A stretch of 32,000 nucleotides of DNA, taken from the NCBI GenBank assembly GCA_043808785.1, contig JAZDEL010000001.1:120001-152000 (forward strand), written 5' to 3'. Source of the DNA: Candidatus Iainarchaeum sp. (GTDB lineage Archaea > Iainarchaeota > Iainarchaeia > Iainarchaeales > JAZDEL01). This document shows positions 4,674-31,129 of this stretch, piece after piece. Below the pieces are notes generated by a model that made no database searches, was not told the origin of the DNA, and was given only the letters and a program-made list of their open reading frames with translations. The translations under genes were made by a program, and so were the position numbers. How positions within the stretch are numbered: position 1 is the first letter of the stretch; every line of letters starts with the position of its first letter.

Positions 4674-4692
4674 AAGCCCGCCAGAGCGAAAT

Positions 4693-4700
4693 ATTTATAT
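4693..4700 (+). promoter_or_regulatory. TATA-box-like element (ATTTATAT) upstream of the MNT gene
   Basis: It lies in AAATATTTATATTTG, about 38 nt upstream of ATG 4735, inside the unique (non-repeated) part of the cassette. Confidence 0.35.
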
Positions 4701-4734
4701 TTGCGTTTATCCGATAATACTATCGTGAAATCGT

Positions 4735-5912: not shown

Positions 5913-5919
5913 CCCTGCC

Positions 5920-12200: not shown

Positions 12201-15200
12201 ACAGACAACAATGTAACCAACCCCGCAGGCAATGAATGGTGGTATGCAGTCCAGCGCCGCGATTTGAATTCGGACTTCGACGCAAACACGGCAATTGCCC
12301 GCGGCTACGCCAAGCGCGCAGCAGATGCCCATTTTTACAACAACAAATGGGACCCGACTTGGGTTGATGCGTGGGTGAACACAAACGGCGGTAATTGGAC
12401 TGCCAATAGCGGTCTTACTACTCAATTCAACGCTGGGGAAACCGACTACATAAACTACACGCTTTACATCGCCAGCACAAAGGAACTTGGGCAGGTAATA
12501 TACGGGGCTGCTGCCGGATCTTCCGGAATAAAGAACGCCCCCGACGAAAACAAAATCGATTACATCATGCTCGATTACCGCAATCCCGACAATTTATTCA
12601 TGACAACAGGCACCTCGCAGGGCTTTGATTACAACCACGGCGCCTATCTTGTCACTGCAAGCGGCAACCGCGTGGACTTCAACATCTCCACTAACGGAAT
12701 ATACAACGACCACAACAACTGGGACACTAACAGGTACAGCCCGGCGTTCGAAATCAGCGGTTACACAGCCTCCACCCGCCCGCTCATGCGCCTTAACGGG
12801 GCGGATTTGAACGAGGGAATCGACTTTGTTGCGGATGTGAACGATTCCGCGGATTATGCGGTTGTTGTTTGGTTAGGCTCGCTCACGGGAGACGACCAGA
12901 ACGCGCAATTGCAGATTGCCTCATCATGGGACTCAAACGCCCCCGCTGTTTCGATAACCTCCCCCGCCTCGGGCTCCTCGACGGCGGCGAACTCCATGAA
13001 CGTAAAATACTGGGGCGTGGATGTGGACACGGGAATAAAGAAATACTACGTCCAGATGGATTCTTTGGGATGGATAGACAACGGCACGAACATCACGCGC
13101 AAGTTCTTCGGCTTAGCTGCGGGTTCGCACACGGCTTACGTAATTGCCGTTGATAACGCGGACAACAATTCAACAACGGCGAGCGTTACCTTTACCTTAA
13201 CCACGCCTGCGGCGACCGTAAGGCACCTTGACGTGAACGCGACAGGGGCGAATTTTGAGGTGGGGACGGCGGACTTTAATATGCTCTTCAACCAGCAGTA
13301 CGGCGGGGGAATTACGAAAATATTTGACCTGAATCGTGATGGGGTAATTAAAACCAACTTTGCGTCGGCTGTTTATTCGACTTTTGAGTTTGACCAATGG
13401 GTGGCGGCGATTGGTGCCCAGAGCCGCGTGATGGCTGATGACAACGGCGCCCAATTATGGAAAGCCGAGGATTTGAACAGCAGGGTTAAGATAAGTTCAA
13501 GCGGGGCGTTTATTGAATGGGATGGCGCACCCGCTGGGCCGAAATGGGACTTGAATTTCAACAGGACATATGCAATATATCCTATTACAGGCGGTCTCAA
13601 AATTGTTGCACACCTTGAAATGACTGACACAAACAGTTCGGCAACAAATTATGACATTTTTCGCCATGTTTTTTATTCGAAAGGTTCAGGGACTGTTACA
13701 CATACGGACAACAATGTGTCCGCACCAGCGGGAACAGAATGGTGGTATGCAGTCCAGCGCACTGATTTGAACTCCGACTTTGATGCAAACACAGCGATTG
13801 CCCGCGGCTATGCCAAGCGCGCCGCAGATTCAAGTTTTTACAACGAGAAATGGGACCCAACTGCCGTGCACATGTGGTATACTAGCGGTTGGGCTAACTG
13901 GCAAGATGGCGATCTCTCCCCTGAATTCCAGCCAGGCGAAACCGATTACGTAAATTACATTATGTATTTCGCAAGCACAACCGAACTTGGGGGGGTGACT
14001 TATGGGTTGTCTTCGGGAATACAGTCCGCCCCCGACGAAAACAAAATCGATTACATCATGCTCGACTACCGCAACCCCGACAATCTGTTCATGGCAACAG
14101 GCACCTCGCAGGGCTTCGATTCCAACACGGGCGCCTACAAGGTTACCGCTTCGGGCAACAGCGTTGACTTCAACATCTGCACTAACGGAATAATGAACGA
14201 CCAGAACCTCTGGGACACGAACAGGTACAGCCCCGCGTTTGAAATCGCAAGTTACACCGCCTCCACGCGCCCCTTAATGCGCCTGAACAACGTGGATTTG
14301 AACGAGGGAATTGATTATGTTTCCGATGTGAACACTGCAGGCGATTACGCGGTTGTAGTCTGGCTCGGCGATTTGACTGTTGAGGATTCGAATGCGCAGC
14401 TGCAGGTTGCGGCAAGCTGGAATGCCGCGCCGACGGTAGCCATAACGCACCCTATAGACAGGCTTTCAACGACGGGGAACGGGATAACCGTGGCATACTC
14501 GGGCACGTCCCAGAACGGGATTGCGAAATATTACGTCAGGATTGACACTAATGATTGGATAGACAACGGCACTAGCACATCATACTCCTTCAGCGGCCTG
14601 AACTATGCGGCGCACGTTGTGTATGTAATCGCAAATGACACAACGGATGTGAATTCCGCTACGGCAAGCGCATCATTCACGCTTTCCCCGATAGGGGAGG
14701 CGCCGGTAACGGAGGCAATCGGCGGAACCCCTGAGGAAGGGGGCGCGCAGGGAACGGAAGGAACTCAGGGAACCGAAGGGCAGGCAGCGCAGACCGAAAC
14801 AATAGCGGAATCAACCTTCGTATTCGAACAGAGGGGGCAGGGCGCAAGAGGCGCGCTTGCAGGGCTCGGCATCCCGCAGGTCCAGCTGGAGCAGGCAGCG
14901 GCAATGTCGGGCAAGGTGATAAGGTCTGTGGAAATAACAAAGGCGCTCAAAGGCGAAATGCTTTATTACAACAGCAAAATAACCCTTGTAGTAATGAACA
15001 CATCCATGGAGGATATGAAGGACGTGAGCATTGTCGAGCACATACCCAAGGAAATAGCGCAGGACGCATCTGAAATAAACTCCGAAACGCCCTTCATCGT
15101 TATAAAGGGCGACCCTATTGTAAGATTCATGATTGGCGACATCAATGCAGGCGGGGAAACGGAGATAACCTACTTGGTGCCAAATGCAATAAGCATTGGC

Positions 15201-15872
15201 GGCGCAAGGGCGGCAATAGAATACTACTCATCCAATGCCCCGATAATAGCGGGCTCGCCGCGTTTGGGGGTGGCTGAGAGCATCAAATATGCCGTGCTCA
15301 GCTCCCTGTACCGCTATGTTCCCACAAAAAGCCAGATAACCGAAACCCTGAGGAGCGCGGGCATGGATGTAAGCAAGGCAGCGGAGGCGTTGCGCATAAA
15401 CAGCCTCGTTACCCTGTACAAGGGCGGAACAGTGATTGCGGAGGAAGGCATGCATGGCACAAAATACACCACAAACTTCACCATAAAGGTCGTGAACAGC
15501 TCGGACAAGCCCATAATGGATACGCGTGTGCTGGAGGTAATCCCGAAAACAATTGCGGAAACCGCAAACCTTGTAAATGCAAAGGGAAACCACAGGGTGC
15601 TTGTTCAGGACCCGGTGCTTGAGTTTGAAATAGGCACGCTTCCCGCGGGAAAATCGGCAACAGTGCAGTACGAAGTCGGGAAGAAAGTGGGCAGGCAGGA
15701 GATAGAGGAGCTGTCCGCCCCTGTAGTGACGGGCGTAACCGAAGAGCCTGCAAAGGAGGAGGCGCCGAAGGACGACACCCTGTTAATTATAGGGCTTGCG
15801 GCGCTTGCGGTTATATGCGTGGGCGCATTCCTGATGAAAAAGTACGAGATAAAGCTTGAGCTTGAGATATGA
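6084..15872 (+). CDS. Giant (3,262 aa) modular, C-terminally membrane-anchored cell-surface protein
   Basis: This is an uninterrupted 9,789-nt ORF. The signal-like segment is ...VSALFLALLIVLAADVHA. Five ~430-aa modules are each followed by a ~90-aa Ig-like domain (SP..GS.TAA.SMN.KY.G.D..GI.KYYV.MD...WIDN..NIT..F.GL.AG.HTAYVIA.DNADNNS..ASVTFTL). There are two chitobiase-C/Big-like inserts (PSTSWDGN..WSK.DQNI.LTCTDD..CASTKYRLDTNG). The C-terminus has two beta-sandwich-like domains, the TM helix LLIIGLAALAVICVGAFLM and a short basic tail. The start is uncertain (ATG 6084 or ATG 6174). Confidence 0.9.
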   Translation: MNRRMPLFSRAPCEIPRSPCEIPRSVNARTMCGRLPVSARAPPPGGRLPVSALFLALLIVLAADVHAPVMDVNAAGLNFQVTTINLWDNSADWNIFFQQSLGGLVTQLYDENRAGTTNFSSTNEFDRWYATISGSGKQEINDASARLWKMGDLNSRAQIVSESAFYRCSGGLCNFDVNTYRVNSIYPIGRTETGHGIVRWVVHMEMTDTNLLKATTDYNAFHHAISVGAPTKYDFNSFTDNNVGAPGDAEWWHGQQYTRQSGDANQVFVIGYSPNRVQRFFERLWNPTSANQWVSDNCINLDPNDSCWNDNNLYPQFNAGEMEYLNYVIFLTDTNWFTSINGNIYALTDENRIDYVMQDWRNPDTPFMQKGVFSYFDFNVGAYDMNADMNRVDFNMDTRGTKNSYNEFYSDMNTMDTNRYRPAFVVRNYTADAVPEVKINGRFGTYDVNYMADVNWAADYAVVVWYGDLTLPDQNVQLQIGYDINAPAVSITSPSVGSSTAATSMNIKYWGIDMNTGIKKYYVRMDAGDWIDNNVSITKNFLGLGAGEHTAYVIATDNADNNSAQASVTFTLTAPALTIRHLDVNATGANFEVGTADFNVFFQQSEGGCITKVVDLNRDSAKKNLSVSSGSEFFDHWFGTDSSSQSRTEGDDNASQLWKAEDLNSRVKITSSGALTRWGAAGESISGTSGQIYDLNFLKTTTIYPIVGGFRLVIHDEFTDVNSAATDYGWFYHGTEIISSTFYTYSDNNWGGTGWGAKVLDKSFWRGMQRYDLNSDFDANTVIVIAYEKPTSQKFFNGKWDPSVVVSNWGLPSSGTYWADSTLSDFSAGEMDYINYTIILIGTKEFGQVIPGIQEAPDENFVDYYMLDYRNPDNLFMATGTSQGFDYNHGAYLVTASGNRVDFNISTNGIYNDHNNWDTNRYSPAFEIANYTASTRPLMRLNNVDLNEGIDFVADVNTEGQYAVVVWFGDLTGDDQNAQIQIDNDWAAGANTAPDVNVTSPSDANYLSQYTGGYDHNISLVFSVMDAEGDELNADLYYSTSAGDFTTAIINDLNLNDHANNAALSCDDVDWTDATTCVFDWNVSAIADGNYFIDLNVFDTSDLNKVDSSAVSFYIDNTEPSTSWDGNRTWSKHDQNITLTCTDDTACASTKYRLDTNGASVVSYGAWQTYTAAGISVTDDGNYAIDFNSTDTAGNVGDTNTFYILIDKNSPAVSFTSPAAGSETAANSMNVKYSGNDSNGSGILRYWVKMDSGEYINNGTNITKNFLGLGAGSHTASVIATDNADNNSSTASVTFTLTTPAVTKRYLDVNQTGLNFEVGTADFNLFFNQGQGGVVTGFADLNVDARVKTNFAGTSGLSTWMMQHVPSTFWRYENQDTSARLSLDEDLNARVKIGAEGALMTSTSKVFDLNFTKTNTIYPNGKWYVTMIFTDTNTDATNYATTRHYECADNDYTAVYRDNDDATPDPGFEWWHQLVRKDLNSDYDSNTSVTCGYDTPSALKFFTGKWNVDGIPSALSGCTSGGGWAATLDPEFAAGEVSYLNYMLYISNMRETGPASEEEFIDSFYLDYRTPDDLFMTTGTSQGFDVNVGAYKLTASGNRVDFNISTKVGATDVNRYKPAFEISNYTASTRPLLRHNGADKNEGIDFIADVNTVGQYAVVVWMGDILTTDVNAQFQIDDSWVTDTNAPSTSWDGNASWSKYDQNIRLTCTDDSSGCASTKYRLDTNGSSTVSYGSWAAYTSAGISVTGDGNFALDFNSTDTAGNVGDTNTKYVLIDSNAPAVSFTSPAAGSSTAANSMNVKYSGNDSNGSGITKYYVRMDSGNWIDNNVNITRNFLGLTAGEHTAYVIATDNADNNSSTASVTFTLTTPAATVRHLDVNATGANFEVGTADFNLFFQQDRGGGISRLVDLNRDGVLKTNDVGSLCYYSSYSFPGLLDGWHARMDTGTRHRTLHDDNSAQLWKAEDLNSRVQIKSSGALMDWNGAGSPHWDLNFTQTNTVYPVLGGLRVAVHLEMTDTNSGATNYGAPFTNIYCTSGFVTYTDNNVTNPAGNEWWYAVQRRDLNSDFDANTAIARGYAKRAADAHFYNNKWDPTWVDAWVNTNGGNWTANSGLTTQFNAGETDYINYTLYIASTKELGQVIYGAAAGSSGIKNAPDENKIDYIMLDYRNPDNLFMTTGTSQGFDYNHGAYLVTASGNRVDFNISTNGIYNDHNNWDTNRYSPAFEISGYTASTRPLMRLNGADLNEGIDFVADVNDSADYAVVVWLGSLTGDDQNAQLQIASSWDSNAPAVSITSPASGSSTAANSMNVKYWGVDVDTGIKKYYVQMDSLGWIDNGTNITRKFFGLAAGSHTAYVIAVDNADNNSTTASVTFTLTTPAATVRHLDVNATGANFEVGTADFNMLFNQQYGGGITKIFDLNRDGVIKTNFASAVYSTFEFDQWVAAIGAQSRVMADDNGAQLWKAEDLNSRVKISSSGAFIEWDGAPAGPKWDLNFNRTYAIYPITGGLKIVAHLEMTDTNSSATNYDIFRHVFYSKGSGTVTHTDNNVSAPAGTEWWYAVQRTDLNSDFDANTAIARGYAKRAADSSFYNEKWDPTAVHMWYTSGWANWQDGDLSPEFQPGETDYVNYIMYFASTTELGGVTYGLSSGIQSAPDENKIDYIMLDYRNPDNLFMATGTSQGFDSNTGAYKVTASGNSVDFNICTNGIMNDQNLWDTNRYSPAFEIASYTASTRPLMRLNNVDLNEGIDYVSDVNTAGDYAVVVWLGDLTVEDSNAQLQVAASWNAAPTVAITHPIDRLSTTGNGITVAYSGTSQNGIAKYYVRIDTNDWIDNGTSTSYSFSGLNYAAHVVYVIANDTTDVNSATASASFTLSPIGEAPVTEAIGGTPEEGGAQGTEGTQGTEGQAAQTETIAESTFVFEQRGQGARGALAGLGIPQVQLEQAAAMSGKVIRSVEITKALKGEMLYYNSKITLVVMNTSMEDMKDVSIVEHIPKEIAQDASEINSETPFIVIKGDPIVRFMIGDINAGGETEITYLVPNAISIGGARAAIEYYSSNAPIIAGSPRLGVAESIKYAVLSSLYRYVPTKSQITETLRSAGMDVSKAAEALRINSLVTLYKGGTVIAEEGMHGTKYTTNFTIKVVNSSDKPIMDTRVLEVIPKTIAETANLVNAKGNHRVLVQDPVLEFEIGTLPAGKSATVQYEVGKKVGRQEIEELSAPVVTGVTEEPAKEEAPKDDTLLIIGLAALAVICVGAFLMKKYEIKLELEI
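6300..7803 (+). repeat. Giant-gene coding repeat 1 (module A1 6300-7535 + Ig-like B1 7536-7803)
   Basis: It starts with LNFQVTTINLWDNSADWNIFFQQSLGG and ends with NVQLQIGYDINAPAVSITSP...SVTFTLT. Boundaries are approximate. Confidence 0.75.
7804..9977 (+). repeat. Giant-gene coding repeat 2 (A2 7804-9050, extra Ig-like + chitobiase-C-like insert 9051-9707, Ig-like B2 9708-9977)
   Basis: The module runs from RHLDVNATGANFEVGTADFNVFFQQSEGG to NAQIQIDNDW. It is followed by APDVNVTSP..., EPSTSWDGNRTWSKHDQNITLTCTDD... and NSPAVSFTSP...SVTFTLT. Confidence 0.75.
9978..11681 (+). repeat. Giant-gene coding repeat 3 (A3 9978-11135, chitobiase-C-like 11136-11410, Ig-like B3 11411-11681)
   Basis: The module runs from RYLDVNQTGLNFEVGTADFNLFFNQGQGG to NAQFQIDDSW. 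It is followed by NAPSTSWDGNASWSKYDQNIRLTCTDD... and NAPAVSFTSP...SVTFTLT. Confidence 0.75.
11682..13201 (+). repeat. Giant-gene coding repeat 4 (A4 11682-12935 + Ig-like B4 12936-13201)
   Basis: The module runs from RHLDVNATGANFEVGTADFNLFFQQDRGG to NAQLQIASSW, followed by NAPAVSITSP...SVTFTLT. Confidence 0.75.
13202..14690 (+). repeat. Giant-gene coding repeat 5 (A5 13202-14420 + diverged Ig-like B5 14421-14690)
   Basis: The module runs from RHLDVNATGANFEVGTADFNMLFNQQYGG to NAQLQVAASW, followed by NAAPTVAITHP...ASASFTLSP. Confidence 0.75.
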
Positions 15873-16106: not shown

Positions 16107-16802
16107 GGATTTCAGGCGCAATGCCTTGAAAAAGAAAAATTTTCATTTGACGAAACAGGGTTCATTTACGTAAGCCTTTCCCTTGAAGGAAACACCCTTA
16201 CTCTGTCCGAAACCGAAAAAATAACCGGGCAAAACATTGCCCCCGCATCAAAACCATTCAAGGATGCGCAGCAGGTCCTGGATTATAAAAAAGCGCTTGA
16301 CGGGTTTATTTTCTCGGATAAGGCAATCACGCAGGAATCTATTATCGAGTTTCACAGGGCGGCAATGAATCCCCTGGCTGCGGGCGCAGGCAAATTCAGG
16401 GCGGGAAATGTCAGGATAAAAGGCAACCCCGCCTTTAAAACCCCCGACTGGAGGGAGCTTTCGGGGCTATTGGCGGTGTTTTTCAAAAGCGCGGGCATCC
16501 CGGAAAAGAAAAAAGTTTCCGCCGCCGAAACAGTCGAAAGCGCTGCCTTTTTGCACAACGAATTCCAGCGCATCCATCCGTTCATTGACGGCAACAGCAG
16601 GACATCGAGGGCGGTATTCCTGAAAGCGCTGGCCCAAAGCAATTTTCCGTTAATAAAAATTCCCGTGGGCTTTTCCGACCAATACATGAAACTGACCAAA
16701 CTAAGCGAAAAAAGAGACGACAAAAAATTTGCCCTGCTGATGAAGCAGATAGCCCTCGAAAACCTGAAATACTTTGCAAAAAAACTCGAGTATGAATCCT
16801 GA
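16107..16802 (+). pseudogene. Fic/DOC-family protein gene lacking an upstream start codon (probably 5'-truncated)
   Basis: The Fic motif HPFIDGNSRTSR is a variant of HxFx(D/E)GNGRxxR with Gly->Ser. The frame is open back to the TAA at 16104 and encodes Fic-like N-terminal sequence (...SLSLEGNTLTLSETEKI...IIEFHRAAM). There is no ATG, GTG or TTG in frame before ATG 16365. Confidence 0.6.
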
Positions 16803-16879: not shown

Positions 16880-17224
16880 TTGGCGAAAGAAAAAGTGAAA
16901 ATCGAGGGGATAAATACAATCGCTTGCGAAGCGCTGCTGATTCTGAAGCAGGGCGCCGAAATAGACAGGAGGGGCTCGGTTAAGGGCCAGAAAGATGCGA
17001 TAGATATATTCACCTTATTGATATATGCGCCAATCGACTTCAAAAAATATCTCGCGCTGCTGGCAAAAAACAAAAAGGAAAGCCTTGTTAAAGAATTGAT
17101 TGGCGAAATAATGCGCTTTAATCCGAAAGATTCCGAAAAATACCTGGGCGTAAATTGCGGGGAATTCGCAAAAATGAAAAAAGAACTGCCGGGCAGAATA
17201 AAAGCCGCCCAAATCTCAAGATGA
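16880..17224 (+). CDS. Small ORF resembling only the C-terminal half of an AbiEii/DUF6036-like nucleotidyltransferase (possible gene fragment)
   Basis: The pattern ...IEGINTIACEALLILKQGAEIDRRGSVKGQKDAIDIFTLL resembles the LK..A.R.KD..D..L C-terminal motif. There is no NTase N-domain. It has a TTG start and lower GC than its neighbours. Confidence 0.3.
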   Translation: MAKEKVKIEGINTIACEALLILKQGAEIDRRGSVKGQKDAIDIFTLLIYAPIDFKKYLALLAKNKKESLVKELIGEIMRFNPKDSEKYLGVNCGEFAKMKKELPGRIKAAQISR

Positions 17225-17258: not shown

Positions 17259-18206
17259 CTACCTCGGCAAATCTATAACTATGCCCTCGCCCTTCTTTAT
17301 CTTGTATATCACAAGCCCCTTCTTGTGGTTGCTGCTCCTGAGCTTGAGTATCTCTATCGCATTCGTGCGCGAGAGCTCCCTCTTCACATTGTAAAGCACC
17401 ACAACCCCGTCCGCCAAAAATTCTTCAACTCCGGTTCTGCTGTATATCCTCGGGTCCTGCTCGGTTTCCGCAATTATGAGCGAAAGGGCGCCAGTGGATT
17501 CAAGCGCGTCGAAAAGCTTCTTCACATACCTCCTGTAATTTTCCTCGTCCTCGAAGGCTATGCTCAGGGCCGAGAGCGAATCTATGGCAATGCGGTCCGG
17601 CACAAACGGAAACACTATCTTCTCGGTTTTTATGTCGGGCTCCCTGTCGCTCATGAACATGCGCTCGACGCTGCGGGCAAGCTTAAGGGAATCGCATTTC
17701 ACACCCGCGAAAAGGCCGCGGCGCTCCATTTCATACAGGTCCCAGCCGTAATTCTTTTTCATGTGCGCCTTTATCTTCTCGGGTTCCTCCTCGAAGGAGA
17801 TGAAGATGCCGCGCTCGCCGTTTAGGCAGCCGTTGTACAGGGACTGCATTGCAAAAGTGGTTTTTCCCGTGCCCGCGCCCCCTGATATGAGTATGCTGGA
17901 GCCCCTTTCAATCGCGCCGTCGTCCACAAGGCCGTCAAAATTGCTCACCCTCACGGGAAGATATTCTCCATCGCCCCTCACGCCCTTGTAGTTTGCGTGC
18001 TTTATCGCCTCCCTGAGGCCCAGCTTGTCCCCGAACTCGATTATGTCCGAGAAAATCCTGTATGCGCCCTCATCAAACTTCTCTTCCGCACCGCGGGATT
18101 TTGCAGCGTCCGTGCCCTTTGCGCCTTTTTGCGGCTCGTTCTTCCTTTTCAGGAAATTCAGGGATACTTTTCCAAACAATTTAGCCATTCCAATCATCTT
18201 GCCCAT
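17259..18206 (-). CDS. KaiC/RecA-superfamily ATPase (single KaiC-like domain) with a ~95-aa N-terminal extension
   Basis: Walker A is ILISGGAGTGKTTFAMQSLYNG and Walker B-like is RIAIDSLSAL. The segment ...LSLIIAETEQDP... is typical of archaeal KaiC-like ATPases. Confidence 0.8.
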   Translation of the reverse strand: MGKMIGMAKLFGKVSLNFLKRKNEPQKGAKGTDAAKSRGAEEKFDEGAYRIFSDIIEFGDKLGLREAIKHANYKGVRGDGEYLPVRVSNFDGLVDDGAIERGSSILISGGAGTGKTTFAMQSLYNGCLNGERGIFISFEEEPEKIKAHMKKNYGWDLYEMERRGLFAGVKCDSLKLARSVERMFMSDREPDIKTEKIVFPFVPDRIAIDSLSALSIAFEDEENYRRYVKKLFDALESTGALSLIIAETEQDPRIYSRTGVEEFLADGVVVLYNVKRELSRTNAIEILKLRSSNHKKGLVIYKIKKGEGIVIDLPR

Positions 18207-18284
18207 GTTTCCGCCGAACGCATTTTTTACGGCTTATATCATTTAATAATAACCTCTAACCCTTATTAAAATATCCCCCCTTCC

Positions 18285-19469
18285 TTAGCAGATGCCCCCT
18301 TCGAGCTTCTCCAGCTCTTCCCGCAGTTCCCCCAGCCTTTTTGAGTATGTTTTTTTGCTTATCGTGGCATTCTCGAAGTAATCGCGCTTCAGTTGCGAAA
18401 TTTCGCCCTCTATGCCCGACCTCTTCCTCATTTCACCGCGTTTTCTGAGGCTTCTGCCTATTGCGCTCTTGGTTGCGAAAAATAAAATTGCCATCAGCAA
18501 AACAAACCCCGCCGCGCCCGCAATAAGCACGGTGTTGCTGTTTATTATGCCTTCGCTTATGATTACGGTTATTTCCCTGTGTGCGGTGTTGCCGTATCCG
18601 TCTTCGGCACCTATTTCCAGTGCGGTTGTGCCGAGGTTGGACTCGTTAGGCATGAAGTTATAGCTGTAACTGTAATCCTCCCCTATATCCATCCTGAACT
18701 TCTCCCCCCCCACCTTCAGGGTTGCGTCTCCCTTGAACAGCCTGCCGTCCAGGTATCTCATGCGCACCTTTACGGGAATCTCGAAGCCCAGGGTAAAGTT
18801 GGATGCCTGCGGGCTTTCAATCTCGACATCGACCTGCGCAGGGGCGATGCTCATTCCGAACACGCCCTCTCCGCCGATTTCGGAATCTTCGCTTCCCCCC
18901 TGCGCGGTTACGGTAAATTCCCATTTCCCGAGCGGCGCATCCACGGGGATGAACTGCCGCATTGAATAAACCCCGCCGCCCGCATGCGTGAACTCGTGCC
19001 TCGATCCCTCGGCGCCCCATGCAACAACCGACGCGTCCTCCACGGCCTTGCCGTCCTCGGAAACGCGTATGCTTGCGTTGAACTCCTCCGTGCGGTAGTG
19101 CTCGGTTTCGCTCGGGCTGAGGAGCGTCAGCAGCAGGTAGCCGCCCTCTCTTGTCGGGTTTACGTAAATGTCGGTGCTTTTTGTGCTGAGCCCGTCCACA
19201 GCGGTTAGCCTCCATCTCCCTTTGGGGTCCAGCTGGGTTATTTTGTGCATAATCCCGTATGCCTTGTCCGCCGCGCAGGAGGTTGTTTCGTGGAACACGA
19301 GCAGGCCATGCATTTCCGCGCTTAGTTCCACGGCATTTGTTTCACACCTGCCGTTTATGGTTATGGTTTCGCCCTTTGTGTAGGAATTCTTCGGCACCTC
19401 TATTGTTGTCGCGCCCGCCAGCGAGCAGAGCGCAAGCAGCACCGCAATTAAAACAATCCATGCCCTCAT
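18285..19469 (-). CDS. Secreted single-pass membrane protein: signal peptide, Ig-like/beta-sandwich ectodomain, TM helix, cytoplasmic coiled-coil (SHOCT-like) tail
   Basis: The signal peptide is MRAWIVLIAVLLALCSLAGA. The ectodomain ends ...GAEDGYGNTAHREITV. The TM helix is VLIAGAAGFVLLMAILFF and the tail is ...ISQLKRDYFENATISKKTYSKRLGELREELEKLEGG. An ATGA overlap links it to the upstream gene. Confidence 0.8.
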   Translation of the reverse strand: MRAWIVLIAVLLALCSLAGATTIEVPKNSYTKGETITINGRCETNAVELSAEMHGLLVFHETTSCAADKAYGIMHKITQLDPKGRWRLTAVDGLSTKSTDIYVNPTREGGYLLLTLLSPSETEHYRTEEFNASIRVSEDGKAVEDASVVAWGAEGSRHEFTHAGGGVYSMRQFIPVDAPLGKWEFTVTAQGGSEDSEIGGEGVFGMSIAPAQVDVEIESPQASNFTLGFEIPVKVRMRYLDGRLFKGDATLKVGGEKFRMDIGEDYSYSYNFMPNESNLGTTALEIGAEDGYGNTAHREITVIISEGIINSNTVLIAGAAGFVLLMAILFFATKSAIGRSLRKRGEMRKRSGIEGEISQLKRDYFENATISKKTYSKRLGELREELEKLEGGIC

Positions 19470-21427
19470 TTTTTGTTCGCCCCCTTCGCGCTTCCGCCGC
19501 TGTCCGCCCTTTCAATCCCCTTTCCCGCTCCGCCTGCCGTGTCCGCCTTGCCTCCCTTACTCCCTTTCCCCCCGCCTTTCCCAAGCCTCTTAAGTTCCTT
19601 GTTTATTTCCCCGAGCCTGGCGTCGCATTTCTGCATAGTGCCCTCGAATTCCTCGCGCCCCATATTAAGCTTGTTAAAGTAACGGTCCTCTATCTCGCGC
19701 CTCCTTGCCCTGATGCCCGCGGCCTCCTTCTCCAGCCTGCCTATGCCGCGCCTCCTGCCGAAGAAATATATTGCCGACTGCATCACGATAAGCAGTGCCG
19801 CGATTCCGGCAAGTATTGCGGGGAGGTTTTGCATAAGCAAGTATGAAAGCGCAACCCCTGAAACGTCGAGTTCCCTTTCGGCAATGCCCATGTTTCCGTA
19901 TGCGTCCTCCGCAATCACGGTTATCTTAACGCGCCCGGCGTCATCCTCCCTGAAAACATATTCCTGCCTGCAGCGCCCGGTTTCCACCATCGGCATGGAG
20001 ATGTTCCTGTCGTAAACTGCAAGCGTGCATGACGCATTTTCCGCGAGTTCGCCCCACGGATATGAAACCCTTGCGGAGAATGCGGCACTTTCCCCTATTT
20101 CGAAGTGTATTGCCGCGGGGTCGGTTATCTCCACGGAAAGTTCGGTTTCCTTTATCGCGGCCTCGAAAGTTTTCGTGCCGCTGCGCCTGCTGCCGTTGTC
20201 GTCCCTTACCGCGTTCAGGGTAAACTCCTGCGTGCCAGCGGGCATCGAAACCCCGACATTATAAACGCCCTCATACTTCCCCTCGCCCGCGCCGTCGAGC
20301 AGAACTGTCCCGCCGTTCGGAAGCGCCACTGAAACCGTTGCGCCGTCGAATGCCGCCCCGCCCGCGTCCTTCACCACGACGCTGAACAGCATCTCCTCAC
20401 CCCTTGCATATTCCGCTTTGAGCGCGCCAAGCAGCTCCACCGAGAGGAATGCCGCCCTGTTCGGGTCTATGAGGCCTATCTCCTTCCCGAACCTGCCGTG
20501 GTTGCCGTAACTGTCGCTGCAGTTTATGTCCACAGTAACCTTCCTGGCCTTGTCAAGTATGCTTGTGCGGTACTGCGTTTGGAAGCTTCCGTCGGATGAG
20601 GAGGTTACGGATTCCGAGAAAATCGGGCTCGAGCCCGAGAGTATCCTTATGTCAACAGGCACCTCCGCAGGCTTGCCGCCCTTGCTCACTTTTCCGGAAA
20701 CCGAAACAGTGCCGCCGAGCACATAATTTTCATTCAGGGAAGCGGATATTTCCAGGACATCGGTTATGGTTATTGCAGTCTCGGCGCTCGATTTTACGCC
20801 CTTGAATTCGCCGTTTACCTTTACATCATGCCCCCCCGGTTCGGCGTTAAGGTTTATGTCCACGCGTGCCGCGCTTATGTTGTCGCCGAATGCCGCGTCC
20901 TCGTGCGCCCCGTCGTTGTAGAATTCCGCCCTTTCAAAAGGCCCTGTTGCGGACAGTTTTGCCGAGGGGATCTTCCTGCCGTTTGCCGTGGCCTGCACTT
21001 TTATCAGTATGCTGTCTCCGCGGAAGTAGGTTGCCGCCGCCGCGGGCTCCATAATCGTGAGTTCAAGGCTTGTCGGGTCGCAGTCCGAGGGGCAGTTTGC
21101 GTAACCCTCACTGCCCTCGCATACTTCGTTGCCGCAGCAGTTTGCCACGGTAACAAGCCTGCAGCTCCCGCTCACGCACCGGTAATTGCGGCACAGTTTT
21201 TCCGGAACCCTGTCGGCGCAAATGCCGCAGTCCCCGGGGCAGCCGCACATGTCCTCCTCGCCGTTGCAAATGCCGTCGCCGCATGTCGCCGCATATGCCG
21301 GCGGCAGGGCAATAATCGCCGCAAGGAAAATTGCAGTAACCGCCAATTTGGGATTCATTTTATCGCACCGTGCACAAGCAAGTGCGGCAAAAACAAAAAA
21401 CCGCCGCACCATGCCGCATTTTGACAC
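19466..21427 (-). CDS. Secreted single-pass membrane protein: Cys-rich N-terminal module, several Ig-like/beta-sandwich domains, TM helix, coiled-coil (SHOCT-like) plus G/K-rich cytoplasmic tail
   Basis: The best signal peptide starts at internal ATG 21358 (MNPKLAVTAIFLAAIIALPPAYA); ATG 21412 and 21427 are alternatives. The Cys-rich module is CGDGICNGEEDMCGCPGDCGIC...CPSDCD. DSYGN and DAYGN motifs mark the domain ends. The TM helix is LPAILAGIAALLIVMQSAIYFF and the tail is ...EIEDRYFNKLNMGREEFEGTMQKCDARLGEINKELKRLGKGGGKGSKGGK... Confidence 0.8.
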   Translation of the reverse strand: MSKCGMVRRFFVFAALACARCDKMNPKLAVTAIFLAAIIALPPAYAATCGDGICNGEEDMCGCPGDCGICADRVPEKLCRNYRCVSGSCRLVTVANCCGNEVCEGSEGYANCPSDCDPTSLELTIMEPAAAATYFRGDSILIKVQATANGRKIPSAKLSATGPFERAEFYNDGAHEDAAFGDNISAARVDINLNAEPGGHDVKVNGEFKGVKSSAETAITITDVLEISASLNENYVLGGTVSVSGKVSKGGKPAEVPVDIRILSGSSPIFSESVTSSSDGSFQTQYRTSILDKARKVTVDINCSDSYGNHGRFGKEIGLIDPNRAAFLSVELLGALKAEYARGEEMLFSVVVKDAGGAAFDGATVSVALPNGGTVLLDGAGEGKYEGVYNVGVSMPAGTQEFTLNAVRDDNGSRRSGTKTFEAAIKETELSVEITDPAAIHFEIGESAAFSARVSYPWGELAENASCTLAVYDRNISMPMVETGRCRQEYVFREDDAGRVKITVIAEDAYGNMGIAERELDVSGVALSYLLMQNLPAILAGIAALLIVMQSAIYFFGRRRGIGRLEKEAAGIRARRREIEDRYFNKLNMGREEFEGTMQKCDARLGEINKELKRLGKGGGKGSKGGKADTAGGAGKGIERADSGGSAKGANKK

Positions 21428-21520
21428 TTAATATATATAAAAGGTGATATTTATTGGTTATGCTCGCGCCGCCGCTTGCCTTCCGCGCTTTTTTTATCGC
21501 GGTAGAATAGGTTTATATAT
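21428..21520. promoter_or_regulatory. Divergent intergenic promoter region with AT-rich TATA-like boxes
   Basis: TTAATATATATAAAAGG (21428-21444) faces the minus-strand operon. GTTTATATAT (21511-21520) lies ~27 nt upstream of ATG 21543. Confidence 0.4.
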
Positions 21521-21542
21521 GAGTTTCTACCCTACAATAGGA

Positions 21543-22016
21543 ATGGTTCTTAAAAATTCGGGAGCAAATTTCGCTGCGGTTGCAATTCTTGTTGCCGCGC
21601 TCGCTGTGGGCGGGTATTTTGTTTTTGTACAGCCCGCATTGCAGCCCGCAAACGGCGGGGCGCAGCCATCCTTTCAGGGCGGTGCAGGCCCGCTTGTGGA
21701 GCGTTCGTTTTCAACGGGAACCCTGAGTGAAGGGCAAACCCTTACAGTGACCATTAAGGTCAGTACAGGCGGCGCCACATACTACGCCTTTGACGAGGTT
21801 CTGCCCGAGGGCTGGGTTGCGGTGAACACAGGCCTTTCAACCGAGCACATCGGGCACGCAAAGATGGTAGTTATAGAGGGTGCGGCAGATGCCACGTTCA
21901 GTTACGATGTCGTGGTGTCGGGAAAGGGCGCCAGGGCTTTTTCGGGCGGGTATATGTTCGAGGGCATGGCGAACGAGTCCGCGATAGCGGGCTCCTCAAG
22001 CGTCACTGTCCAGTAG
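21543..22016 (+). CDS. Small secreted/signal-anchored protein consisting of one beta-sandwich-like module
   Basis: The hydrophobic N-terminus is MVLKNSGANFAAVAILVAALAVGGYFVFV. The module RSFSTGTLSEGQTLTVTIKVS..ATYYAFDEVLPEGWVAV...FSGGYMFEG...IAGSSSVTVQ is paralogous to the N-terminal module of the next gene. Alternative starts are ATG 21519 and GTG 21444. Confidence 0.65.
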   Translation: MVLKNSGANFAAVAILVAALAVGGYFVFVQPALQPANGGAQPSFQGGAGPLVERSFSTGTLSEGQTLTVTIKVSTGGATYYAFDEVLPEGWVAVNTGLSTEHIGHAKMVVIEGAADATFSYDVVVSGKGARAFSGGYMFEGMANESAIAGSSSVTVQ

Positions 22017-22196: not shown

Positions 22197-22226
22197 TGCT
22201 TCATCCATTATTAACGGTGGTTGACG

Positions 22227-24449
22227 ATGGCTTTCATATTGCGCAAAAATGAGGCCGCGTTGCTTTTTATTTCAATGCTCCTGGCTGCTGCAGGGCTGAT
22301 GCTTGCCCTGCAGGATTCCCGCACGCTCGGATTTTTCAGCATTTTCCTTACGGGAGACAGCGTAACCCGTTCTTTCTCTTCCACAAACCTGGTTGCAGGC
22401 AGCACACTGACAGTTTACCTTAATGTTGATATCGGCACCGCGGGCTATTACGCGCTTGAGGACCATCTCCCAAGCGGATGGACGGTTGTTCCCGGCTCGA
22501 CAAACATGTACACCGACCAGGCGGGCGTTGTAAAATGGCTGGTTTACCAGAATCCCGTGGACACGACCCTTTCATACCAGACGGTTGTGCCTGCCGGCGC
22601 TTCCGGCGACTACTCGTTTTCGGGCACATGCCTTTTCGAGGGCAGCGGCGAAACCACTATCCTGGGGCAGTCCTCGGTGAATGTGGGCGGCATGGACAGT
22701 ACGCCGCCCGTAATCAGCAATGTTTCCGCAGTGGTTTCCGATTCTGGCACGGGCGCAACTGTTTCATGGTCGACGGATGAGGACAGCAATTCGAAGGCGG
22801 ATTACGGGCTTTCAACAGCCTACGGGCAGCAGGTTTCGAGCCCCGTTATGGTGCCTGCACATTCGCTTCCAATAGGCTCGCTGCAGCCCGGTACCGCGGA
22901 TAAGGCATACCATTACAAGGTAACGAGCGCGGATGCCTCGGGAAACAGCGCAACAAGTCCGGATTACACATTCACAATCCCCGCATTGTGTGCCGACGGG
23001 CCGATATCGGGCACGTGCATATGCGGCGGCTCGACAAAGTCTTCCGGCTATTGCTGTTCGGGTTTCTGGCAGGCAAATGACTGCACATCCCCGCCCGAAC
23101 CATGTGCGGAAGGGGAAATAACCGGCGGCACCTGTGTATGCGGCCAAATTACCGCAGGCAACGGATACTGCTGTTCGGGCGCATGGCAGGATGGCGCCTG
23201 CGGCGGCGAGAATGGCGGCGGAGGAGGCGGCGGAGGCGGAGGAGGCTCCTCGATTTACTACGCCGCGGACAAGGACAGGGACGGGGTAGGTGACTGCCCG
23301 GGCAGCATCGACAAGAACCAGGCTGAGAAGTCAACCGCAACCGTGCAGCAGGAGATTGCGGAATCCGTAAAGCTGAAAAGAAACCTGCCATACTTTAAAT
23401 ACCTGACCCGCGGCAAGGTTACGACTGTTTATTACACCGCGGGAATTGACTGCGACTGCAACCCGATGCAGAGGTTTATAGGGATCTGCAGGAACAACAC
23501 CGCATGTAGGGGCGGCAAATGTGTTGTTGCCGAAGCCGGCAGCCCGGGGGGGGACCTGATAGAGGGCCTGGGCGGGGATGCGGATAAAACCTCGATATTC
23601 TCGAAATCTTTCGAAACTGTGGCCGCAGCCGAGGGCATACGTGCCGTGCTTGGAGAGGCGGGCTATGGCTCGGCGGAAATCAGGTATGCCGAGGCTGTTG
23701 CAGGCAGGCTGAAGTTCACAAGGAAAATAGAGGTTTTTAAGATTGCGGGCATTGACGGAAACGTGAGCCATAGTTCGCTCATAACGATTTCCGCGAAGAA
23801 CGAGGTCGGAACAAACCTTACCAATATTGTCGTGCTTGAGAAGGCCCCGAAATCCATTGCGCAGAATATTTCGGAAATATACAGCGACTTCGCATTCAAC
23901 ACGTATGTCAACGACCCGGTTATTGAATTCCCGCTCGGCGACATGAATGCGGGCGGGGAGTCGGCGGTTTCTTACTCCGTGAGGCGCGACATAACCGGAA
24001 CATATTCCGATTTCATGGCGCCTGTTGCGCTCAGCCTTGACGAAACCGAGCCGCCCGCCTGCGAGTGCAACGACAATAACCCGTGCACAACCGACGGCTG
24101 CAACGCCGACGGGAGCTGCACGCATCCGGACGTCCGGGACGGCATAAAGTGCGGGGAGGGGGGAAGCTGCATGAAGGGCGCCTGCACAAAGGAGGAGGGC
24201 GGTTTCGGTTCCGCGGGCCTGCTTGCCATAGGGCTGGCGATACTGATGCTTGTGCTGCTTGTGGGCGGCATAGTTTTAAGGCACGGCAAAGGCGGTGCCG
24301 AAACGGAAATTCCGAAAGCCGCGCCCGTGCGAACCCCAAGCGTGCGTGATGCGGAAAAACAGGCCCATGCAAAAAAAGCGGGCGAAAATGATCCTTGGAA
24401 AACCAAGGCAAACCCGGGCGGAGCGGAAATTATAGAAGAGGATGCGTAA
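22227..24449 (+). CDS. Multidomain C-terminally anchored surface protein
   Basis: It has a signal anchor (AALLFISMLLAAAGLMLAL). An N-terminal module is paralogous to 21543-22016 (RSFSSTNLVAGSTLTVYLNVD..GYYALEDHLPSGWTVV...FSGTCLFEG...LGQSSVNV). An Fn3-like domain follows (PPVISNVSAVVSD..ATVSWSTDEDSNSKADYG...YHYKVTSADASGN). Next come two Cys-rich repeats, a poly-Gly linker, a DKDRDGVGD Ca-binding-like motif, and a domain shared with the giant protein. The C-terminus has a CxxDxNxCTxDxC-type Cys-rich motif and the TM helix LLAIGLAILMLVLLVGGIVL. ATG 22227 is preferred over TTG 22221. Confidence 0.85.
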   Translation: MAFILRKNEAALLFISMLLAAAGLMLALQDSRTLGFFSIFLTGDSVTRSFSSTNLVAGSTLTVYLNVDIGTAGYYALEDHLPSGWTVVPGSTNMYTDQAGVVKWLVYQNPVDTTLSYQTVVPAGASGDYSFSGTCLFEGSGETTILGQSSVNVGGMDSTPPVISNVSAVVSDSGTGATVSWSTDEDSNSKADYGLSTAYGQQVSSPVMVPAHSLPIGSLQPGTADKAYHYKVTSADASGNSATSPDYTFTIPALCADGPISGTCICGGSTKSSGYCCSGFWQANDCTSPPEPCAEGEITGGTCVCGQITAGNGYCCSGAWQDGACGGENGGGGGGGGGGGSSIYYAADKDRDGVGDCPGSIDKNQAEKSTATVQQEIAESVKLKRNLPYFKYLTRGKVTTVYYTAGIDCDCNPMQRFIGICRNNTACRGGKCVVAEAGSPGGDLIEGLGGDADKTSIFSKSFETVAAAEGIRAVLGEAGYGSAEIRYAEAVAGRLKFTRKIEVFKIAGIDGNVSHSSLITISAKNEVGTNLTNIVVLEKAPKSIAQNISEIYSDFAFNTYVNDPVIEFPLGDMNAGGESAVSYSVRRDITGTYSDFMAPVALSLDETEPPACECNDNNPCTTDGCNADGSCTHPDVRDGIKCGEGGSCMKGACTKEEGGFGSAGLLAIGLAILMLVLLVGGIVLRHGKGGAETEIPKAAPVRTPSVRDAEKQAHAKKAGENDPWKTKANPGGAEIIEEDA

Positions 24450-29703: not shown

Positions 29704-29776
29704 TAGCCCCGGAGAGATTCGAACTCCCGTCGCAAGGTCCAAAGCCTTGCATGCTTGGCCGCTACACCACGGGGCT
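29704..29776 (-). tRNA. tRNA-Gln (anticodon UUG), 73 nt, no encoded CCA
   Basis: The reverse complement is AGCCCCGTGGTGTAGCGGCCAAGCATGCAAGGCTTTGGACCTTGCGACGGGAGTTCGAATCTCTCCGGGGCTA. The acceptor stem is AGCCCCG/CGGGGCT. The anticodon stem is CAAGG/CCTTG with loop CT-TTG-GA. The T-arm is GGGAG-TTCGAAT-CTCTC and the discriminator is A. Confidence 0.9.
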
Positions 29777-30507: not shown

Positions 30508-31008
30508 ATGGGCAAGTTTCCGCTCGAAGAGACCCAAAATCACGCACATGTTGTCATGGATGCCCTGAAGTCCAAAGAAGTAGGCTGGGGTAAAGTTCGC
30601 CCCTCGATAGAATACTTAAAAGAATTTATTGCACAAATTGAGAGAGTTGGCGAGGAATCCGGAAAATCAGGCAGGAACTTTCTCAGGTCGGGGGCAGTGG
30701 TGCCTGCGGAATTCGCCCCTTTGCTTGAACGGGTTGTCTGGGTGACGGATGAGTGCGAGATGCTGGTCGAGCGTGTCAGGAGAAAAAAGGGGGTTGATGA
30801 TGACATTACCGCGCGCGCAAGGCTGCCGAAGGGAACGCAATGTGGACAGGCGATACGAAGGCGCGGAAGAGCGCAGAAGCAGTCACAAAAAAGTGACAAA
30901 AATCGTGAATTATGGCGGTTAAGCCTCTTCGGATTTTTGCCCTCTCCCAAACTATTTAAAGGTTTCTTATTTGAATATATCAGCCGGTTCAGCGGGGGAG
31001 TAGCTTAG
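30508..31008 (+). CDS. Hypothetical protein (uncertain; 3' end reads through the tRNA-Ile promoter and into the tRNA)
   Basis: The ORF is open from 30301, but ATG 30301 sits inside a GCTTAAATA TATA-like box, so internal ATG 30508 (MGKFPLEETQNH...) is more plausible. No motif was recognised. The last 15 nt overlap the tRNA. Confidence 0.3.
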   Translation: MGKFPLEETQNHAHVVMDALKSKEVGWGKVRPSIEYLKEFIAQIERVGEESGKSGRNFLRSGAVVPAEFAPLLERVVWVTDECEMLVERVRRKKGVDDDITARARLPKGTQCGQAIRRRGRAQKQSQKSDKNRELWRLSLFGFLPSPKLFKGFLFEYISRFSGGVA

Positions 31009-31068
31009 CCTGGTTGGAGCATTCGGCTGATAACCGAAAGGTCGTGAGTTCAAATCTCATCTCCCCCA
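30994..31068 (+). tRNA. tRNA-Ile (anticodon GAU), 75 nt, no encoded CCA
   Basis: The sequence is GGGGGAGTAGCTTAGCCTGGTTGGAGCATTCGGCTGATAACCGAAAGGTCGTGAGTTCAAATCTCATCTCCCCCA. The acceptor stem is GGGGGAG/CTCCCCC. The anticodon stem is TTCGG/CCGAA with loop CT-GAT-AA. The T-arm is GTGAG-TTCAAAT-CTCAT. A TATTTAAA box lies at 30953-30960. Confidence 0.9.
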
Positions 31069-31129
31069 CTTAGGTGCAGGTTAGTAGGGCTGCAAGCCGT
31101 ACGGATCACGCCCGGATCCTTCCGGGCTT

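Follow-up and report, generated by a model that had tools for sequence, protein, structure and literature searches.

Three adjacent genes in the 32,000-nucleotide stretch of Candidatus Iainarchaeum DNA that was analysed (referred to as the window) appear to represent a conserved module of DPANN archaea, in which two paralogous surface proteins, A and B, would form a hetero-oligomer that docks a ring of a CI-type KaiC-like ATPase through their cytoplasmic tails. On balance, we give this reading a little better than an even chance of being right. Its main support is that the pairing of A/B-type tails with this ATPase recurs across many DPANN genomes and, therefore, looks like an undescribed membrane-spanning machine.

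Anatomy of the locus and its products

The genes for A, B and the KaiC-like ATPase were found as three co-oriented minus-strand open reading frames in the order A-B-KaiC (Table 1), encoding 653 (when counted from a GTG), 394 and 315 amino acids, respectively. An earlier note on this DNA, made from the letters alone, had described their co-orientation, the ATGA overlap and the 78-nt gap, all of which were located at exactly the positions it gave, and the same 4-nt overlap between A and B was seen in many orthologous loci. Because the orthologues of A begin with MNPK..., the true start of A is probably the ATG at 21358 rather than the GTG, which would give a protein of 630 residues. The AT-rich TATA-like element in the spacer between B and KaiC was common to the window and a 71%-identical orthologous locus (L018), from which we infer that KaiC may also have a promoter of its own, and may be transcribed independently as well, in this lineage; the promoter function of the element is itself inferred.

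Table 1. Positions of the genes and of the observed or predicted features of the module in the window
Feature	Position	Strand	Basis
Gene A, type-I surface protein	19466..21427	-	ORF; paralogue of B; A-type clade in tree
A, signal peptide MNPKLAVTAIFLAAIIALPPAYAA	21287..21358	-	Hydrophobic segment, residues 28-46; translation
A, N-terminal Cys-rich module CGDGxC...CxxDC...CCGN..C...NCxxDC	21077..21286	-	Conserved in all A orthologues
A, tandem beta-sandwich ectodomain	19853..21076	-	BLASTP against B; homology to B model
A, transmembrane helix, residues 530-548, then RRR	19784..19840	-	Hydropathy scan
A, cytoplasmic tail domain, residues 567-611, ...EIEDRYFNKLNMGREEFEGTMQKCDARLGEINKE	19595..19729	-	Tail HMM from other loci, E=6.9e-8
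ATGA overlap, A stop/B start (translational coupling)	19466..19469	-	Read from sequence
Gene B, type-I surface protein, 394 aa	18285..19469	-	ORF; orthologues aligned
B, three beta-sandwich (MG/Ig-like) domains, residues ~25-305	18555..19397	-	AlphaFold2, pLDDT 80.8
B, transmembrane helix, residues ~308-330	18480..18548	-	Hydropathy; AlphaFold2
B, cytoplasmic tail domain, residues 349-390, ...ISQLKRDYFENATISKKTYSKRLGELREELEKLE, predicted helix-turn-helix	18300..18425	-	Tail HMM, E=6.6e-12
B-KaiC spacer, 78 nt, TATA-like ATATTTTAATA at 18264-18274	18207..18284	-	Sequence
Single-domain KaiC-like (CI-type) RecA-superfamily ATPase, 315 aa	17259..18206	-	PF06745; KaiC CI PDB matches
KaiC, variable basic N-terminal extension, residues 1-80	17967..18206	-	Alignment; model
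KaiC, ATPase core	17274..17966	-	Invariant columns; alignment to KaiC CI; high-confidence model
KaiC, Walker A GGAGTGKTT	17856-17882	-	G109-T117

BLASTP aligned A with B over ~370 residues (E=5e-21), the match extending through the transmembrane helix into the tail. Judged by this alignment, A and B are true paralogues, as the earlier note had claimed. Both proteins start with a hydrophobic signal sequence, and near the C-terminus each has one transmembrane helix with an R/K-rich stretch behind it. Likewise, the beta-sandwich ectodomain and the D-x-x-G-N motif that had been attributed to them along with the signal peptide and the single transmembrane helix were all present; in the motif of B (EDGYGN), D290 and N294 are invariant among the orthologues. 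In a tree of the shared module, which carries no support values, the A and the B sequences separated completely into two clades whose subtrees were congruent. This suggests that the duplication is ancient and that the paralogues have been co-diversifying. The Cys-rich module of A is missing from B and found no match in Pfam or NCBIfam, while the C-terminal ~300 residues of the A ectodomain are homologous to the B ectodomain by BLASTP, and a profile search of the A ectodomain gave weak matches to Big_7, DUF11 and Big_1.

An exhaustive profile search with B retrieved 657 representative relatives or clusters; a word-indexed homologue search with the B profile had yielded three proteins, and the AlphaFold2 model of B rests on an alignment of three sequences. 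In Foldseek the model matched complement MG arrays and Big-domain adhesins of bacteria with a probability of 1.00; MpIBP and SiiE were among the adhesins matched, and the S-layer protein 7ptp of Haloferax was a further match. All Pfam matches of the ectodomains to MG2 and Big_7 were sub-threshold. As modelled, the B ectodomain qualifies as a tandem MG/Ig-like beta-sandwich fold. The predicted transmembrane helix continues unbroken into a juxtamembrane helix and leads into a helical hairpin (helix to residue 366, turn at 367-371, helix at 372-393).

The third gene product matched PF06745 over residues 86-311 (E=5e-48, 163.9 bits against a cut-off of 26.6), and the best PDB matches of its core were KaiC CI domains, including the GVEEF(L/V)AD segment. 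Invariant among 30 homologues were G109-T117, the E139/E140 pair, D209 of Walker B, the K288/R290 finger and H294, and these residues aligned to the KaiC CI motifs; as far as the sequence shows, the enzyme is catalytically intact. Its homologues are 50-65% identical across DPANN, and mean pairwise identity amounted to 54% for KaiC versus 29% for A, as expected if the ATPase is active and strongly constrained. A metagenome scan recovered at least 458 contigs with a gene of the KaiC clade; an exact-sequence look-up of the window KaiC returned no record. The N-terminal region to which the earlier note had assigned ~95 residues does exist, but its length is closer to 80. In 94 homologues this extension had a median length of 59 residues and was K/R-rich, and in the AlphaFold2 model residues 1-41 were disordered (pLDDT < 50), followed by two short, weakly confident helices at 46-71. 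Since the extension is both variable and mostly disordered, it is unlikely to serve as a specific docking site.

A tail family linked to one KaiC clade

The cytoplasmic tails of A and B had been noted to resemble each other, and a comparison under proper statistics had been set as a test of this resemblance. Detection by regular expression gave mostly false positives, and an iterated HMM was used instead. When built from other genomes only and scored against 445 six-frame segments of the window, this HMM produced two matches, one in B (E=6.6e-12) and one in A (E=6.9e-8), with the next-best match at E=6. The alignment of 69 non-redundant tails spans 46 positions, with the consensus ..L..lik.LQ..YF..g.Is.eeY..lm..Y...L..I. 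and near-invariant residues Q, Y, F/Y, I/M/L, Y/F, Y/L and L. In all partner proteins the tail begins 20-30 residues past the transmembrane helix. These partners range from ~195 to 1710 amino acids, every one of them ending in the same motif, and the giant ones have two to three tail repeats each, all cytoplasmic by the count of transmembrane helices. The tail is the conserved element of the partner proteins, their ectodomains varying in length between about 200 and 1700 aa, and by the HMM statistics the tails are a robust new family. The 3262-aa and 742-aa surface proteins that neighbour the trio in the window both lack the tail according to the HMM.

Known domains offered little purchase on this family. 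The label 'SHOCT-like' that the earlier note had applied by eye found no support at threshold: the window tails did not match the 28-position SHOCT profile (PF09851) at E<=10, and two of 60 family tails matched its core, the best with 13.6 bits against a gathering score of 27 (E=0.06). Eight of the 60 matched GvpG (PF05120; best E=8.7e-4, ~15 bits against a gathering score of 30.6), all in one register at profile positions 30-66 of 67, which is the C-terminal half; the window's own tails matched neither GvpG nor SHOCT. If anything, the sub-threshold likeness would be better to the C-terminal half of GvpG than to SHOCT. What the tails have in common with these domains is a short helix-turn-helix with LQ..Y(F/E)..G.I(S/T).EEY after a hydrophobic helix, and the C-terminal helical hairpin of SHOCT is met, in form only, in the B tail (350-393). 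No gvp genes (gvpA, gvpF and others) were present in the window or among the recurrent neighbours of the module. A word-indexed search with the 46-residue profile against 5.8 billion sequences was empty because the domain is too short to reach E-values in a collection of that size. Characterised interaction domains gave no match to the tail at threshold, and PDB sequences gave nothing significant; the best PDB match, the domain Ia motif of NAD-dependent DNA ligase (E=0.09), was taken as convergent.

The genomic linkage of the tail to the ATPase, the absence of which would have refuted the earlier note, proved to be conserved. Tail-bearing membrane proteins were encoded in 30 of the 32 KaiC-clade loci that had at least 4.5 kb of flank on each side, the nearest usually lying less than 100 bp from KaiC. 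In the two exceptions the adjoining giant secreted ORF was cut by the end of the locus, so that a tail would not be visible. By contrast, none of 15 loci of other KaiC homologues (haloarchaea, Methanomassiliicoccales and others) had the tail; these control loci were generic P-loop matches from a genome scan with the KaiC alignment, with two true orthologues among the matches listed. The trio was kept in every orthologous locus looked up by gene (L018, L021, L022, L024, L026 and L107), and the linkage spans Diapherotrites/Iainarchaeum, Micrarchaeota and unlabelled DPANN metagenome contigs. Gene order varied between A-B-K, K-A-B and A-K-B, or B/A lay on the opposite strand ~2.5 kb off, and in L038, L039, L043/L107, L051 and L056 KaiC overlapped its partner gene by 4 nt. 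Among the neighbours of 92 loci, the A/B family recurred in 59 and every other gene family in six or fewer; in other genomes the module was flanked by housekeeping genes, with no toxin-antitoxin (TA) genes. As far as gene neighbourhoods can tell, the tail is linked to this KaiC clade near-exclusively.

Proposed mechanism and competing readings

We envisage that A and B probably pair as a hetero-oligomer in the membrane, with their MG/Ig-like stalks outside and A topped by a distal Cys-rich cap. Each transmembrane helix would pass into the juxtamembrane helix and the 46-residue helix-turn-helix tail, and the tails would bring the KaiC-like ATPase, which presumably forms a hexameric ring, to the cytoplasmic side of the membrane. 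The two to three tail motifs per KaiC gene would match such a six-fold ring. We further infer that the nucleotide state of the ring may be coupled across the membrane with the conformation or clustering of the ectodomains, either outside-in, which would let the cell sense a host or surface ligand, or inside-out, which would let it control a surface structure. That A, B and KaiC form a functional unit, as the earlier note supposed, is supported by the linkage and the tail statistics; the heteromer, the ring, physical contact between tail and ATPase and the direction of signalling remain inferences. In a distant branch of the KaiC clade, genes for REC, histidine-kinase, dCache and hemerythrin proteins lie beside KaiC and a giant surface ORF, which fits a signalling role, although such two-component neighbours were seen only where the partner ORF is cut and its tail unseen. 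Extending the proposal to a DPANN-wide two-chain receptor that is coupled to the KaiC ring via the new tail domain, with sensing or control of host contact as a possible role in these episymbiotic archaea, is tentative, and we would sooner expect it to fail than to hold. There is no direct evidence of tail-KaiC contact, no gene of the module codes for an output component (a transcription factor or kinase, for instance), and a structural role in the envelope would predict equally conserved linkage.

In such a structural role, the A/B stalks would hold or space an S-layer or giant adhesin, with KaiC as a factor for assembly or turnover. This reading overlaps with the docking model and differs from it mainly in purpose. 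At an estimated ~4 nm per domain, the three beta-sandwich domains of B and the ~4-5 of A would give a stalk of ~12-20 nm, to be compared with the pseudoperiplasm of 20-25 nm in a cultivated Micrarchaeon, where the S-layer protein may need a separate transmembrane stalk (bioRxiv 10.1101/2021.04.28.441871). The S-layer protein 7ptp is among the Foldseek matches, a giant surface protein adjoins the trio in the window and in L018, and the housekeeping flanks elsewhere fit a constitutive role. This giant neighbour is not kept across loci, however, Pfam and NCBIfam searches linked no S_layer_N domain to A or B, and a passive stalk leaves the most-conserved tail motif and an active ATPase unexplained. 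We regard this scaffold role as unlikely, while it retains a real share of our belief.

Three further readings were rejected. ArlH is a single-domain KaiC-like ATPase that is held at the membrane with the single-pass coiled-coil protein ArlX, and with this precedent the window KaiC could serve a type IV pilus or archaellum-like machine as an accessory ATPase, A and B being pilus-associated. T2SSE and T2SSF genes lie ~1 kb downstream in L021, and kaiC genes occur in pilus clusters of Nanohaloarchaeota (PMC9563170). Yet T2SSE/F are neither in the window nor recurrent across loci, the score against NCBIfam ArlH (NF052589) was 23 bits with a cut-off of 215, and A and B, with signal peptides of the cleavable type and an anchor at the C-terminus, lack class III pilin signals; we consider this reading very improbable. 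A surface-gene pair might also have come to lie beside a housekeeping KaiC paralogue by chance, without functional coupling, given that archaeal KaiC paralogues are numerous and that the 78-nt spacer contains the TATA-like element. Linkage in 30 of 32 loci despite reordering, the 4-nt KaiC overlaps in several genomes, the empty control loci and a tail family seen only beside this clade leave scarcely any room for such a coincidence. Least credible of all is a defence or toxin-antitoxin island, which was suggested by AbiE, MNT/HEPN and AAA_14 genes upstream in the window (TA-type genes at 1194-5912) and by a weak PADLOC match of KaiC to mad8 (E=5e-7) that is confined to the P-loop region, but A and B had no PADLOC matches, and in other genomes the module has housekeeping neighbours and no TA genes, no such family being recurrent.

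Relation to known systems and implications

The docking model can be set against several described systems. The window KaiC resembles the CI domain of cyanobacterial (circadian) KaiC and the single-domain archaeal homologues PH0186 and PH0284 in its RecA core, Walker A/B motifs, EE pair, K/R finger and His. Circadian KaiC, however, has two domains (CI and CII), whereas the window protein has one, with Glu and Phe aligned to the S-T phosphosites of CII, and unlike circadian KaiC it carries a basic, disordered N-terminal extension. It fell short of the NCBIfam models for circadian KaiC, NF006799 and TIGR02655 (124 against 408 and 95 against 546 bits), and below all cut-offs of the archaeal KaiC equivalogs (114 against 249 bits for KaiC_arch_3); KaiA or KaiB partner genes were found neither in the window nor recurrently among the neighbours of the 92 loci. 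Both the module and the ArlH-ArlX pair of the crenarchaeal archaellum would combine a membrane-positioned KaiC-like ATPase with a protein that spans the membrane once and has a helical region in the cytoplasm, but the window KaiC is no orthologue of ArlH, the loci lack recurrent ArlI/ArlJ, and its partners are type-I proteins with the N-terminus outside and a large ectodomain rather than cytoplasmic coiled coils anchored by the N-terminus. A functional analogy may be drawn with integrins, which are likewise two paralogous type-I chains with beta-sandwich stalks, one of them with Cys-rich modules, and short tails that a cytoplasmic regulator could engage. The comparison serves only to picture two-way coupling: no homology to integrins is claimed or was detected, and in the module the partner on the cytoplasmic side is a RecA-fold ATPase.

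According to Makarova, Galperin & Koonin (2017, mBio), as cited in PMC5847659 and PMC6393860, the KaiC paralogues of archaea are connected to a variety of input modules; compared with such signal hubs, the module in the window would take its input from two single-pass surface proteins with a dedicated tail. The searchable literature contained no description of a tail-KaiC surface module, although the 2017 study cannot be excluded as a prior source. The available part of the supplements to a Micrarchaeum co-culture paper held only host KaiC/GvpD entries.

The module is small and widespread, and few genes in these loci are as well conserved as that of the ATPase. The genomes of DPANN archaea are tiny and their lifestyle is mostly one of attachment to other cells; to our knowledge, the communication between their surface and the cytoplasm is poorly understood. 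If the docking model is true, it would assign a function and a membrane address to a single clade among the KaiC-like ATPases of archaea, which are still enigmatic, and provide a new cytoplasmic tail domain with which partners could be found in any genome. The more tentative extension to a DPANN-wide receptor would also define an unrecognised class of prokaryotic transmembrane coupling devices in which a slow RecA-fold ATPase takes the place of a kinase. Two tail peptides with one soluble ATPase would be a simple system for studying how such an ATPase is coupled to ectodomains. The module could also be the S-layer anchor or the host-contact apparatus that is missing for Micrarchaeota and their relatives.

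Organization of the trio and its surroundings

The paralogous surface-protein genes A and B and the gene for the KaiC-like ATPase share one orientation, A and B being joined by an ATGA overlap and B being separated from the ATPase gene by 78 nt. The ORFs and the sequence thus agreed with the layout proposed in the earlier note. Since orthologues of A begin with MNPK, its true start is likely the ATG at 21358. Furthermore, a TATA-like sequence, ATTTT(T)AA(A)TA, lies in the spacer between B and the ATPase gene both here and at the closest orthologous locus, L018, and the ATPase gene may therefore have an internal promoter of its own in this lineage, as far as can be judged from the motif.

Features of the window
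Feature	Position	Strand	Remarks
AAA_14/DUF4143 ATPase	1194-2492		Upstream of surface-protein region
AbiEi/AbiEii toxin-antitoxin pair	2772-4323		Upstream of surface-protein region
ORF	4323-4742		Looks like a duplicated stub of the giant surface gene
Direct repeat	4330-4612 and 5919-6201		283 bp, 95% identical; flanks MNT/HEPN pair
MNT	4735-5364		Between repeat copies
HEPN	5361-5912		Between repeat copies
Giant surface protein	6084-15872	plus	3262 aa; Asn/Asp-rich, large internal repeats, C-terminal TM helix
Fic/DOC-domain ORF	16365-16802	plus	145 aa; between giant surface gene and KaiC; may be a fragment
Unannotated ORF	16880-17224		114 aa; after Fic/DOC ORF, before KaiC gene
KaiC-like ATPase gene	17259-18206	minus	ORF
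TATA-like element	18264-18274		B-KaiC spacer
Gene B	18285-19469	minus	ORF
Gene A	19466-21427	minus	ORF listed from GTG
Secreted protein	21444-22016	plus	190 aa
C-terminally anchored surface protein	22221-24449	plus	742 aa
tRNA-Gln(TTG)	29704-29776	minus
tRNA-Ile(GAT)	30994-31069	plus

The window encodes archaeal genes, GatE included, which is consistent with its archaeal origin, and the KaiC-like protein is 100% identical to an NCBI protein from a Candidatus Diapherotrites MAG. Apart from the two tRNAs no Rfam family scored above threshold within the window. Because the direct repeats flank the MNT/HEPN pair and the annotated start of the giant surface-protein ORF falls within the second copy, this cassette appears to have been inserted, with duplication, in the 5′ region of the giant gene. 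The giant protein could be an S-layer protein or adhesin, and its orthologue in L018 is convergent to the trio. By eye only, the 190-aa and 742-aa proteins have a common N-terminal domain (YYA(F/L)(D/E)E.LP.GW.VV), and the 742-aa and giant proteins a common membrane-proximal one (PK.IA....E...F.V...DP(V/I).F..GD..AG).

The ATPase and its surface-protein partners

The window ATPase is a single-domain protein that matched the Pfam KaiC family (E=5e-48) but reached none of the NCBIfam equivalog cut-offs for KaiC or ArlH. Among solved structures it aligned best with the CI half of KaiC, and the GVEEF(L/V)AD segment is part of that match; whereas the CII half carries the Ser-Thr phosphosites, the window protein has Glu-Phe at those positions. 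The Walker A motif, the catalytic Glu pair, the Walker B Asp, the K/R finger and one His were invariant in 30 homologues. The additional N-terminal region noted earlier is indeed present, but comprises ∼80 rather than ∼95 residues; it is basic, predicted to be mostly disordered, and variable in length among homologues (median 59 aa).

A and B were verified as paralogues (E=5e-21 across ∼370 residues in a BLASTP comparison), each with a signal peptide and one C-terminal TM helix, as previously claimed; in both, the tail opens with positively charged residues. The AlphaFold2 model of B (pLDDT 80.8) contains three beta-sandwich domains, and Foldseek matched the ectodomain to MG/Ig-like arrays in complement C3/C5, the adhesins MpIBP and SiiE, and a haloarchaeal S-layer protein, in agreement with the proposed Ig-like architecture. 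In this model the TM helix runs on unbroken to residue 366, after which come a turn (367-371) and a last helix (372-393). A cysteine-rich N-terminal module and extra beta-sandwich sequence are found in A and not in B, of which the tail and middle domain are best kept. Mean identity was 54% for the ATPase versus 29% for A. When a B profile was run exhaustively with HMMER, it returned 657 representative relatives, ∼100 of them B-sized and the others A-sized or far larger with a C-terminal B-like module. In a neighbour-joining tree of the common C-terminal module, without support values, all A sequences formed one clade and all B sequences the other, with matching subtrees; from this topology, the duplication would be older than the divergence of these lineages, with both copies retained.

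The cytoplasmic tail

Iterated HMM searches defined the tail as a 46-residue motif with 69 non-redundant copies, the consensus being kekkeLeklikkLQkdYFekgsIskeeYeklmeeYekeLaeiekk and the near-invariant positions Q, Y, F/Y, I/M/L and Y/F. An HMM built without the window sequences matched only B (E=6.6e-12) and A (E=6.9e-8) in the window, which substantiated the claim that their tails match each other, and detected no such tail in the two other large C-terminally anchored surface proteins, the 3262-aa giant included. The proposed likeness to SHOCT was not supported at threshold: SHOCT gave no match to the window's tails, and in individual scans its core matched only 2 of 60 family tails (E=0.06). 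GvpG matched 8 of the 60 (best E=8.7e-4), always at profile positions 30-66 of 67, and every match to either family was well under the gathering score. The tail profile had no significant match among solved structures either. We regard the tail as founding a new family of SHOCT/GvpG-like form, in which a small aromatic core is packed in a helical hairpin.

Giant partners of the ATPase carry two or three tail copies and, where they have extra TM helices, every copy remains on the cytoplasmic side. Giants of 1400-1420 aa with three tail repeats occur at L094, L097:6452-10714 (-) and L100:893-5101 (+), all metagenomic or genomic loci around clade ATPases; at the latter two the order is TM-tail-tail-TM-(∼150 aa outside)-TM-tail, and all three tails are therefore cytoplasmic.

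Conserved linkage and possible function

At all six orthologous loci located by exact look-up, an A-like and a B-like gene adjoined the ATPase gene. A metagenome scan with clade-specific C-terminal ATPase motifs added at least 80 loci, and HMMs of A, B and the ATPase were run against all ORFs of all loci. In the close sub-clade, A and B were present at every locus with adequate flank, in the orders A-B-K, K-A-B or A-K-B (K, ATPase gene), or with B/A on the opposite strand ∼2.5 kb off. Overlaps of 4 nt were common, and the ATPase and partner genes overlapped in L038, L039, L043/L107, L051 and L056. More distant clade members are accompanied by either a giant protein (1100-1700 aa) plus a small (190-450 aa) single-pass protein, or a single 600-700 aa protein, both forms ending in the same sequence pattern as the A/B tails. 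Where at least 4.5 kb was required on each side, tail-bearing proteins were present at 30 of 32 clade loci, an adjacent giant secreted ORF running past the locus end at the other two, versus 0 of 15 loci around KaiC homologues outside the clade among the matches listed. The linkage to tailed membrane proteins suggested in the earlier note thus extends to other genomes.

Two observations concern individual loci. The distinct ATPases P0082 and P0085 (L022 and L107), each with its own A and B pair, are listed with the same 831-kb longest contig, and one genome may hold two module copies, although this was not shown on a single contig. At L068, L082 and L090, a distant branch of the clade, the ATPase gene and a giant secreted ORF are adjoined by two-component genes (two REC proteins, a HAMP-HisKA-HATPase kinase and a dCache sensor) and by genes for hemerythrin, DUF7090/DUF835 proteins and an additional KaiC.

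The contrast between 30/32 and 0/15 loci contradicts chance adjacency. No neighbour family besides KaiC and A/B recurred among the loci examined, which contradicts a defence island and, together with the score below the ArlH cut-off, a pilus or archaellum. A serious alternative is that A and B are structural, acting as an S-layer stalk; in a Micrarchaeon in culture, the pseudoperiplasm measures 20-25 nm and the S-layer protein may require a separate TM stalk (bioRxiv 10.1101/2021.04.28.441871). A signalling role, with the direction of coupling unsettled, is favoured by the REC, kinase, dCache and hemerythrin genes that adjoin the distant branch; it also agrees with the published picture in which KaiC paralogues of archaea serve as signalling hubs, at least as cited in PMC5847659.

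Our analyses established the anatomy, the paralogy, the tail family and the tight, specific linkage to a highly constrained, active CI-type ATPase. In the inferred mechanism, A and B would form a hetero-oligomer, retention of both copies being the expectation for an obligate heteromer. Their tails would bind the ATPase, for which there are no physical interaction data, and which would be hexameric like other KaiC-family proteins; the continuous TM-juxtamembrane helix would relay changes between ectodomain and ring. The two or three tails per ATPase gene are, speculatively, compatible with a six-fold ring.

The earlier note knew of no such system, and searches of the available literature on KaiC with DPANN lineage names or SHOCT turned up no account of the module; the 2017 archaeal KaiC neighbourhood survey was not covered. 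We conclude that the finding is real, that the module is apparently an undescribed, conserved variant of KaiC-based machinery, and that what defines it is a new cytoplasmic tail domain.
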